Part shown: positions 17,371 to 20,664 of the stretch, in pieces
Position numbering within the stretch: position 1 is the first letter of the stretch
How the letters are laid out: every line of letters starts with the position of its first letter
Made by a program: the position numbers and the translations under genes
NCBI GenBank assembly: GCA_964016885.1
Contig: OZ024740.1
Coordinates: forward strand, 353,896,001-353,960,000
DNA length: 64,000 nt
Direction: 5' to 3'
DNA from: Eledone cirrhosa
Taxonomy: Eukaryota
Notes under the pieces: generated by a model
The model's database searches: none
Seen by the model: the letters and a program-made list of their open reading frames with translations, nothing else
Told to the model about the DNA's origin: nothing

Positions 17371-17635
17371 ATATATATATATATATATATATATATAAGT
17401 ATGTATGTATACGTACATACATATATGTATACAGACGTATAGTAGCATGTATATATATATATATATATATATATACATACATGCAGGTACACATACATAT
17501 ATGCACGCATCAGTTTAGCAGACGCTTATTATAGCGCTCGCTTTGTTCGTTTGTCAACAAACTGAACAGCCTGAATTTATGCCATACGGTGTTAAGGCAA
17601 CCACGTCACCTTTTTGTTCAACACTGACACAGGAA

Positions 17636-17676
17636 CGATGTACTAGTTTCAAGCTTGTTAGCTATCATCAGCACCG
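17636..17676 (-). ncRNA. Minimal type I hammerhead ribozyme
   Basis: Minus strand: CGGTG-CTGATGA-t AGCT aaca AGCT t-GAAA-ctag-TA-CATCG; palindromic ACTAGT stem III, GUA triplet. Confidence 0.85.
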
Positions 17677-18110
17677 TATACCCATCTGCCAGATAGTTGA
17701 ACGTTCGAAAGTATATACTTTCCTTATGAAAATTAACGGCTGAGGAGCCTAATTTGCATATCGAGTGAGCTAAGTCGGTCAGGCATACCGAAAACGATCA
17801 GTTGAAATAAAATGAAAACGAAATTTCATTTCTCACTCTTAGTACGGCACTTACTTAAATGTAAGTATGTGTGTATACGTACATGCATATATGTATACAG
17901 ACGTACAGTAGCATGCATATATATATATATATATATATATATATACACATATACATACAGGTACACATACATATATGCACGTATCAGTTTAGCGGACGCT
18001 TATTATAACGCCGCTTTGTTCGTTTGTAAACAAACTGAACAGCCTGAATTTTTATGCCGTACGGTGTTAAGGCAACCACGTCACCTTTTTGTTCAACACT
18101 GACACAGGAA

Positions 18111-18151
18111 CGATGTACTAGTTTCAAGCTTGTTAGCTATCATCAGCACCG
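18111..18151 (-). ncRNA. Minimal type I hammerhead ribozyme
   Basis: Identical copy of 17636-17676. Confidence 0.85.
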
Positions 18152-18603
18152 TATACCCATCTGCCAGATAGTTGAACGTTCGAAAGTATATACTTTCCTT
18201 ATGAAAATTAACGGCTGAGGAGCCTAATTTGCATATCGAGTGAGCTAAGTCGGTCAGGCATACCGAAAACGATCAGTTGAAATAAAATGAAAACGAAATT
18301 TCATTTCTCACTCTTAGTACGGCACTTACTTAAATGTAAGTATGTGTGTATACGTACATACATATATGTATACAGACGTACAGTAGCATGCATATATATA
18401 TATATATATATATATATATATATATATATATATATATACACATATACATACAGGTACACATACATATATGCACGTATCAGTTTAGCGGACGCTTATTATA
18501 ACGCCGCTTTGTTCGTTTGTAAACAAACTGAACAGCCTGAATTTTTATGCCGTACGGTGTTAAGGCAACCACGTCACCTTTTTGTTCAACACTGACACAG
18601 GAA

Positions 18604-18644
18604 CGATGTACTAGTTTCAAGCTTGTTAGCTATCATCAGCACCG
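18604..18644 (-). ncRNA. Minimal type I hammerhead ribozyme
   Basis: Identical copy. Confidence 0.85.
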
Positions 18645-19104
18645 TATACCCATCTGCCAGATAGTTGAACGTTCGAAAGTATATACTTTCCTTATGAAAA
18701 TTAACGGCTGAGGAGCCTAATTTGCATATCGAGTGAGCTAAGTCGGTCAGGCATACCGAAAACGATCAGTTGAAATAAAATGAAAACGAAATTTCATTTC
18801 TCACTCTTAGTACGGCACTTACTTAAATGTAAGTATGTGTGTATACGTACATACATATATGTATACAGACGTACAGTAGCATGCATATATATATATATAT
18901 ATATATATATATATATATATATATATATATATATATATACACATATACATACAGGTACACATACATATATGCACGTATCAGTTTAGCGGACGCTTATTAT
19001 AACGCCGCTTTGTTCGTTTGTAAACAAACTGAACAGCCTGAATTTTTATGCCGTACGGTGTTAAGGCAACCACGTCACCTTTTTGTTCAACACTGACACA
19101 GGAA

Positions 19105-19145
19105 CGATGTACTAGTTTCAAGCTTGTTAGCTATCATCAGCACCG
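19105..19145 (-). ncRNA. Minimal type I hammerhead ribozyme
   Basis: Identical copy. Confidence 0.85.
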
Positions 19146-20664
19146 TATACCCATCTGCCAGGCTGTTCAGTTTGTTTACAAACGAACAAAGCGGCGTTAT
19201 AATAAGCGTCCGCTAAACTGATACGTGCATATATGTATGTGTACCTGTATGTATATGTGTATATATATATATATATATATATATATGCATGCTACTGTAC
19301 GTCTGTATACATATATGTATGTACGTATACACACATACTTATATATATATATATATATATGTATGTGTGTGTGTGTGTGTGTGTGTGTGTGTGTGTGTGT
19401 GTGTGTGTGTGTGTGTGTGTGTGTGTGTGTGTGTGTGTGAGAGAGAGAGAGACGCTTTTATTCGTACATCTACATGTTATTACATAACTCCATTTCATCA
19501 ACTGAATAATATATATATATGTATAAATATATATATATATATAGGAAAATGTTCAAGACCCCGACGGCAGAACTCGAGCCGTTTTGACTGCTACCACTCT
19601 ACTACTCTAAGTATTGAGTACTCTGGTGCGTTATGGTCCACCTGGTTCCTTACCACACTTCCTTCGATATATATATATATATACATATGAGTGTGTTATA
19701 TATATACATATATAGATTTATATATACATATGCAAACATATACACACACACATATATGATATTGATATGAAAACAGATTAAGTTGCATAATATGTAAATA
19801 TGTGAGTGTGTGTATGTGTGAGCGGGTTTTATGGTAGTATGTACATTTTTGTTTTCCTGGTGGATTATTACTCTAAACATTAACACCACTGACAGAAGCA
19901 TTGTTATGGGACCAATTTTAGTGGCTTATTAATCTATTAACTATAAATTCTGATATACTTGAACTAGCCTTTACGTTAAAGCTTTACTCTCACCCTTTTC
20001 CTACCTGATAAAGGTTGGTTTGATAATACAATTTCTCTGCAACAATAAAGAATAACTGATCATCCGTCGGTTCTGAAGACGAAGTTCCAGTTGTTCGAGC
20101 AACAGAAAAGCCTGATTGTGAAATTAACGTGCAAGTGACTGAACATTTTGCACCCTTAACGAAGCATGTTCTGTGCTGTAAAGAATTGGTGACATGCCGG
20201 CCAGTCATAACCACTACAAACATTCAATCTCTCAATAAATCCATTTCAGATCAGCTACTCTTGTTAATGACATTGCATGATTATTCAATTCATTGAAAAT
20301 AAAGCAGTGTGAATTAAATGAAAGACAGAGAGCTACGGAACCGTGTGTGAAACTGACCTACTTAAATATTTTTATGTAGATAAGGAACATTCAACTTCCC
20401 CTATATTACAGATGACTTACGACACTGAACGGATGTCAGCAATGTCGATCTCAGCGAACGTGTAGGGTCAAAATAAAATGCTCAAAAGCATTCATTCGAG
20501 GTTCAGGCATACCTGTCGGTTCATCTACTGCTTGACCTCTAATGGGATAAAGTTCTTTTACAGAAAAAGTTACTGAACTAATACAACTACAATACGGAGG
20601 TTGAGTGACAAAAACAGTACAATGACATAAAATCCAAAGTAATATTTAGTTTCATTAAGTCAAT

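Follow-up and report, generated by a model that had tools for sequence, protein, structure and literature searches.

Non-LTR retrozymes of animals were defined in PMC7229834, a paper that demonstrated circular RNAs in families from coral, mussel and axolotl, described an axolotl hammerhead with U·U at helix II and put forward Penelope-like elements (PLEs) as mobilisers. In 10.64898/2026.07.22.740005, retrozyme sizes of 51–972 bp and homology to pLTRs are given, eight of nine Xenopus retrozyme dimers showed no cleavage in vitro, and the mechanism of mobilisation is left open; co-occurrence and terminal-repeat homology are the grounds on which mobilisation by PLEs has been proposed. PLE insertions are laid out as partial tandems with an inverted 5' copy and a tail that often extends just one of the two ends, and the Hydra clade combines (TA)n targets with hammerheads (PMC8557442). 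In vitro work on one PLE system showed the tail to be the gap between two internal reverse-transcription start sites, with both target strands cut and extended, and found ribozyme cleavage dispensable and uncut RNA to be the main template (PMC11167929). Canonical and minimal hammerheads were separated by Cervera & de la Peña 2014 (PMC4209133), the minimal ribozymes of PLEs having no helix III, a long helix II of 7–8 bp and a short helix I of 4–5 bp.

The window analysed here is a 64,000-nucleotide stretch of the Eledone cirrhosa genome (GCA_964016885.1, contig OZ024740.1, positions 353,896,001 to 353,960,000). It carries at 17396..19340 an array that is a new family within this known class, an animal non-LTR retrozyme and a non-autonomous Penelope-like element. 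Its tandem units, complete type I hammerheads, lack of coding sequence and many dispersed copies uphold the original prediction of a retrozyme-type tandem family. Three full and two partial units lie on the minus strand. The monomers measure 475 nt (17641..18115), 493 nt (18116..18608) and 501 nt (18609..19109) from cut to cut, and, as predicted, differ mainly in an internal (TA)n of 14 (17917..17945 in the first monomer), 23 and 27 repeats, apart from which they are identical save for one substitution. At the 3' terminus, a partial unit (17396..17640, minus strand, monomer positions 1–255) ends at a site here called S and carries substitutions and indels relative to the three identical units, its diagnostic letters being common to locus L032. 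At the other end, the 5'-truncated long arm begins at monomer position 424 (19110..19161, minus strand) and is joined over three shared bases to an inverted arm on the plus strand (19159..19340, monomer positions 70–255), which also ends at S. The entire insertion (locus L001) thus consists of a long minus-strand arm and a short inverted plus-strand arm, with 5' ends at monomer positions 424 and 70 overlapping by 3, and both of its 3' ends run into (TA)n, at 17369..17395 on the left and 19341..19360 on the right. The single minus-strand array proposed earlier is real, but that description omitted the inverted arm, the U·U of the ribozyme and a left end from another subfamily. Among the window's open reading frames of 120 aa or more, only a microsatellite-derived one, overlapping the array end, touches the array, and, judged from the layout, the array is without LTR/PBS/PPT organisation.

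The left (TA)n is common to the array and to a neighbouring element at 16824–17371 (plus strand), in which two tandem units of ~300 bp with a decayed hammerhead stand tail-to-tail with the array. Intact-looking ribozymes of this ~300-bp family occur in L031, L063 and L012, making it a second retrozyme-like family. A third hammerhead family occupies 3040–4316, with motifs at 3359 (−), 3714 (+) and 4152 (+), a period of 438, an inverted plus tandem layout and an internal triple repeat of 33 bp. In addition, a short PLE end with two arms, its hammerhead enclosed by (TA)n runs, lies at 2650–2850, and the hammerhead at 34070, whose helix III consists of A and T only, belongs to a family that recurs in L040, L045, L060 and L080. 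The window also holds a TA-rich satellite of 3.5 kb with a 23-nt period (8215–11784) and non-LTR retrotransposon frames at 41297–44354, 45101–47545 and 52425–58962; RVT_1 was confirmed for 45101–47464, and the others were recognised by eye.

The four type I hammerheads of the array, identified by motif anatomy on the minus strand, lie at 17635..17677, 18110..18152, 18603..18645 and 19104..19146. Their C3 falls at 17671, 18146, 18639 and 19140 and the last base of GUA, after which the cut is predicted, at 17641, 18116, 18609 and 19110, whereas the coordinates given for them earlier mark the 3' end of helix I. Helix I has 6 bp and is predicted by folding to continue beyond a 3-nt bulge; helix II, capped by a 4-nt loop, has 4 bp above a basal U·U; and helix III, the palindrome ACTAGT as already named, has 1 bp. 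These dimensions rule out the min-HHR class of PLEs, and by the definitions of PMC4209133 the ribozyme is of canonical metazoan layout rather than "minimal", as it had been called. It shares the 1-bp helix III with palindromic tetraloop with axolotl HHR_Amex1 and the U·U at the base of helix II with HHR_Amex2 (PMC7229834), thereby combining both weakening features in one motif.

Rfam gave no gathering-level match in the window and, in an E-value scan, only a weak Hammerhead_HH9 match at all four sites (18.6 bits, E 0.46); the microsatellite miRNA matches of the same scan were dismissed as AT-repeat noise. Since Rfam support is weak, identification of the ribozyme rests on motif anatomy and covariation. 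Among 173 copies that span the ribozyme, the core hardly varies, the most variable position being the free N7 (11/173), and the pair at helix I position 3 is G·U, U·G or A-U depending on the subfamily. An unrelated 310-bp tandem repeat (L024:2662–3282, L034:5803–7807) carries a hammerhead with a swapped helix II and different stems and the same U·U.

Predicted energies suggest that the ribozyme would work poorly as a monomer but be competent in dimeric form, in line with the dimer requirement put forward in the original prediction. For the monomer, the form with helix III closed reaches −1.1 kcal/mol against an MFE of −8.7 kcal/mol, the latter being a predicted inactive alternative fold, whereas the double hammerhead of the dimer, at −19.0 kcal/mol, is near-optimal relative to the dimer MFE of −20.9 kcal/mol. 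The ribozyme region folds no better than shuffled sequences (z −1.1), and for the monomer in its entirety folding predicts strong self-pairing (z −9.6, a value inflated in part by a UA hairpin).

Within the Penelope-type reading set out below, one alternative makes the ribozyme a relic, largely inactive or not needed, with the element moving as uncut read-through multimers without circles. The U·U at helix II, the 1-bp helix III and the inactive monomer MFE are what such a relic might show, and a Poseidon element could do without cleavage in vitro (PMC11167929). Against it stand the near-invariance of the core, in which the freest position is N7, and the covariation of helix I between subfamilies, together with an axolotl ribozyme that carries a U·U and nevertheless cleaves, better as a dimer, and makes circles (PMC7229834). 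We regard the relic as a serious contender that falls somewhat short of an even chance; two observations on insertion structure given below also bear on it.

In the 3.0-Gb genome, the exact 32-nt ribozyme core occurs 10,672 times and its reversed control not once, which shows that the motif does not arise by chance. A sister core, distinguished by a single change in a loop, was counted 10,697 times. It marks an older family whose 420–430-nt units match the younger ones at ~84% of aligned positions (354 matches, 66 mismatches); both cores together exceed 21,000 exact ribozyme cores and form a sizeable component of the genome. The first 100 matches of the younger core fell into 53 clusters, from which roughly 5,000–6,000 loci are extrapolated for this core alone. 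The copies are dispersed as short arrays across many contigs, alongside PLEs. Contigs from sequencing runs X1 and X6 showed subfamily variation only, which was not taken as evidence on expression or distribution. The predicted youth of the family accordingly applies to the window's subfamily, but not to a lineage that includes units about 84% identical. Nor are the monomers larger than most described, as had been proposed, considering the published consensus range of 51–972 bp (10.64898/2026.07.22.740005) and the 420–430 nt of the older sister.

Insertion anatomy was examined at 77 distinct loci, of which 53 came from the position-ordered set and 24 from the best hits. They hold 81 ribozyme-containing insertions, of which 55 are two-armed, i.e., 5'-truncated partial tandems with an adjacent inverted copy. 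The 3' ends of the arms, 136 in total, concentrate at two sites: 63 lie at L (monomer positions 312–320) and 53 at S (254–265), and the remainder at the internal (TA)n (7), elsewhere (10) or at the locus edge (3). Where both ends of a two-armed insertion are S or L (n = 39), the combination is S+L in 38 and S+S in one, that of the window, with no L+L (binomial p 1.5e-10); the position-ordered sample alone gives S+L in 26/26. In the other 16 of the 55, one end is neither S nor L or lies at the locus edge. A rough motif count in 56 other loci gave 10 S+L and one L+L. An automated end classifier, which loses AT-rich S pieces (33 "LT") and was excluded from the count, returned no S+S and one L+L among 109 with the window's locus left out. 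S and L lie ~60 nt apart, ~257 and ~317 nt past the cut site, and the extension from one to the other, the "tail", is present at one end only; in the window it corresponds to 17799..17860 on the minus strand. By analogy with PMC11167929, S and L would be the reverse-transcription start sites. The S site sits in a predicted hairpin loop that is kept in both the younger and the older family, the fold being marginally better than shuffles and the tail as a whole not clearly above them (z −1.7). (TA)3 follows within 12 nt after 104/109 S/L ends. The 5' ends are scattered: only 2/137 lie no more than 10 nt from the cut site, 19 coincide with the edge of the (TA)n, and the inversion joints mostly share 1–5 bases. 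The insertions thus bear the Penelope "tail" signature of two inverted arms, staggered ends and a (TA)n target.

This end structure also bears on the reading of the array as an ordinary satellite or a DNA-transposon-like repeat (MITE, Helitron) with a chance hammerhead-like motif. The outer inverted repeats do look superficially like TIRs, and the Rfam support is weak, but the arms are unequal, the 5' truncation joints variable and the two ends staggered, the short arrays are dispersed over many contigs, and the helix covaries. The end structure and helix covariation largely refute this reading, which we hold to be extremely unlikely.

The single S+S insertion, that of the window, is unusual in composition as well. 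The stretch from 17396 to about 17585 carries letters of a different, older subfamily, and the array is a chimera because its left end belongs to that subfamily, with the switch between about 17585 and 17745. On the simplest reading, recombination between a young insertion and an older copy next to it may have removed the L end of the young one. Template jumping at the ribozyme cut was considered as another source of the chimera and set aside, the switch interval of ~160 nt making it indistinguishable from recombination.

The monomer had been described as carrying the same microsatellite that it inserts into, but the idea that this internal (TA)n targets insertion is not supported. The tract has 6–55 repeats in the younger family and 6–7 in the older one. 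As few 3' ends lie at the tract (7/136) and the older family has so few repeats, the tract is best read as a probable slippage expansion, a passenger and not a targeting device.

Regarding the template, the lack of a pile-up of 5' ends at the ribozyme cut and the read-through of the arms imply that it was either uncut or re-ligated, and the circular or multimeric template suggested originally is consistent with arms continuous across the cut. A ligated circle copied by rolling and an uncut multimer appear about equally probable on these sequence data. The absence of the pile-up is also what a relic ribozyme moving as uncut multimers might leave, whereas arrays of up to eight pieces with locus-restricted variants (L034) would need a monomer bottleneck somewhere, which argues against the relic.

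The birth of the arrays was assessed from arms and variants. This comparison replaced a within-array distance (mean 11.4) that was dominated by one old long array, L053, and "restricted" means restricted within the sample of about 80 insertions. In 41 insertions, the divergence at diagnostic sites was 0.9% between an insertion's own two arms and 3.5% in comparison with other loci. The number of units shows no increase with age (Spearman −0.10, p 0.38, n 82), and arrays of 4–7 units with near-zero divergence are present. Some locus-restricted variants occur in every piece of their array (8/8 and 7/7 in L034, 4/4 in L035). The similarity of arms, the variants in every piece and the lack of length growth fit a multimeric birth from a single haplotype, the outcome expected of rolling on a circle. 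Another 22 locus-restricted variants were found in only some units of an array, units alternate with period 3 in L115 (L115:2478–5487, ABCABC) and period 2 in L119 (L119:2400–4076, ABAB), and L053, an older array of 11 units, has variants shared across arms. Partial sharing and these periods indicate that DNA-level duplication or multimer templates also shape arrays. Discounted here were two "shared private" variants of L057, in which a 29-nt arm overlap caused the same bases to be counted twice, and five of L073, which reflect a lone old subfamily.

Such turnover is part of a further alternative, by which the arrays are truncated pLTRs of an autonomous PLE amplified locally by unequal crossover, a route put forward in 10.64898/2026.07.22.740005. 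The period-2 and period-3 patterns of L119 and L115 and the variants shared by subsets of units attest to some turnover of this kind, and pLTR–retrozyme homology is reported in Xenopus in the same source. Among the loci scanned, however, no ORF stands upstream of any monomer; the sequence beyond the L site passes directly into the next monomer; both arms are built from one non-coding unit; and near-zero-divergence arrays already have 4–7 units, with length showing no trend with age. The pLTR origin seems improbable.

The enzyme that might carry out such integration was sought among the PLEs. The window contains a Hydra-clade PLE at 12740–15700 (plus strand), whose ORF is spread over three frames (13142–15445) with DKT, RWR and CxCX5C motifs, whose hammerheads at 13052 and 15634 stand 2.58 kb apart, and whose 3' end lies in (TA)n with a tail of ~70 nt. 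A second Hydra-type element with an internal stop lies at 30655–32532 (plus strand), and Hydra-type PLEs with hammerheads and staggered (TA)n ends were found both in the window and in many of the loci examined. Pfam returned no relevant family for five Hydra-type frames of the window, and the clade assignment therefore rests on motifs. An autonomous relative of the array family was sought by tblastn and ORF scan in L001–L083, L084–L113 and 31 tail-selected loci, and none was found in them. Likewise, comparison of the monomer with the 3' regions of the Hydra elements and with loci selected by tail or ribozyme revealed no pLTR homologue in ~200 of several thousand loci, the best non-self match between those 3' regions and the monomer (20/23 nt, E 0.016) not being accepted. 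The array itself has no ORF for RT and GIY-YIG between pLTRs, and none belonging to its family was found in the loci scanned. As the loci examined held no homologous autonomous element, the partner is deduced from the common target and the end structure. On this basis, the array family is likely copied in trans by a Penelope-like RT/endonuclease, probably of the (TA)n-targeting Hydra clade, which would make it a parasite of these elements.

A pathway can be proposed on these grounds. The enzyme would cut both strands of a (TA)n run, and reverse transcription would begin at the two internal sites S and L, one per strand, with the reverse transcriptase continuing past the ribozyme cut and copying up to several units. 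A ribozyme that works as a dimer but only poorly as a monomer would allow multimeric transcripts to be cut to monomers and spare the circles.

A few loci join the retrozyme to other families. In six, a retrozyme L arm stands back-to-back with the S end of another hammerhead family (L136, L038, L061, L145, L021, L059); the partner in L136 is the Hydra family found at 13 kb in the window, and those in L038, L061 and L145 resemble a Hydra element in L054. Two L+L cases (L081, L039), one possible S+S (L108) and other, unclear ones were also seen; the pattern is not significant and serves as a lead only. One model for these hybrids is that Penelope integration is asymmetric twin priming, in which an RT/endonuclease dimer would place one subunit at each start site, roll on ribozyme-made circles and be able to take up two different RNAs; we consider it unlikely at present.

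Compared with the described systems, the array family resembles animal non-LTR retrozymes (PMC7229834, 10.64898/2026.07.22.740005) in its non-coding tandem units with a type I hammerhead, low GC, thousands of copies, predicted self-paired RNA, co-occurrence with PLEs and size. It differs in that, in the parts of these two papers used here, retrozymes are presented without inverted arms, staggered tails or (TA)n targeting, larger TSDs or local amplification being mentioned instead. In addition, circles and cleavage are shown there for the coral, mussel and axolotl families and are putative in the array family, and a pLTR homologue is reported there and none was found here in ~200 of several thousand loci. 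With Hydra-clade PLEs (Craig et al. 2021, PMC8557442) it shares (TA)n targeting, the hammerhead, the tandem and 5'-inverted layout and the one-ended tail, but it has no ORF, a unit of ~0.45 kb instead of about 3 kb and a tail of ~60 nt instead of 30–40; in the window's Hydra element, S lies ~30 nt past the cut site, compared with ~257 nt in the array family. Poseidon PAc of Anolis (Frangieh et al. 2024, PMC11167929) likewise has two internal start sites that account for the tail, an AT-rich target, cutting of both strands and one site in a predicted stem-loop, yet its start site in vitro is equal on both strands, while the arms of the array family differ in 38/39. MRC1 and other non-autonomous elements of Chlamys (PMC8557442) are non-autonomous PLEs with multicopy head-to-tail insertions as well, but they share 3' sequence with autonomous families and, in that account, are generally without canonical hammerheads. 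Inverted, tailed and microsatellite-targeted retrozymes were not met in the literature beyond the cited papers, as far as the parts used here extend, and the supplements of 10.64898/2026.07.22.740005 may list such families.

The retrozyme class is thus a known one, and what is new is a quantified Penelope integration signature on a tandem repeat with hammerheads, whose young copies are numerous enough for statistics. The family supplies a short, well-defined RNA with two predicted start sites for probing trans-mobilisation and the choice between circle and multimer templates in vitro. If asymmetric twin priming were true, the hybrids would be explained, and the family would provide direct genomic evidence for retrozyme circles as intermediates of Hydra PLEs.
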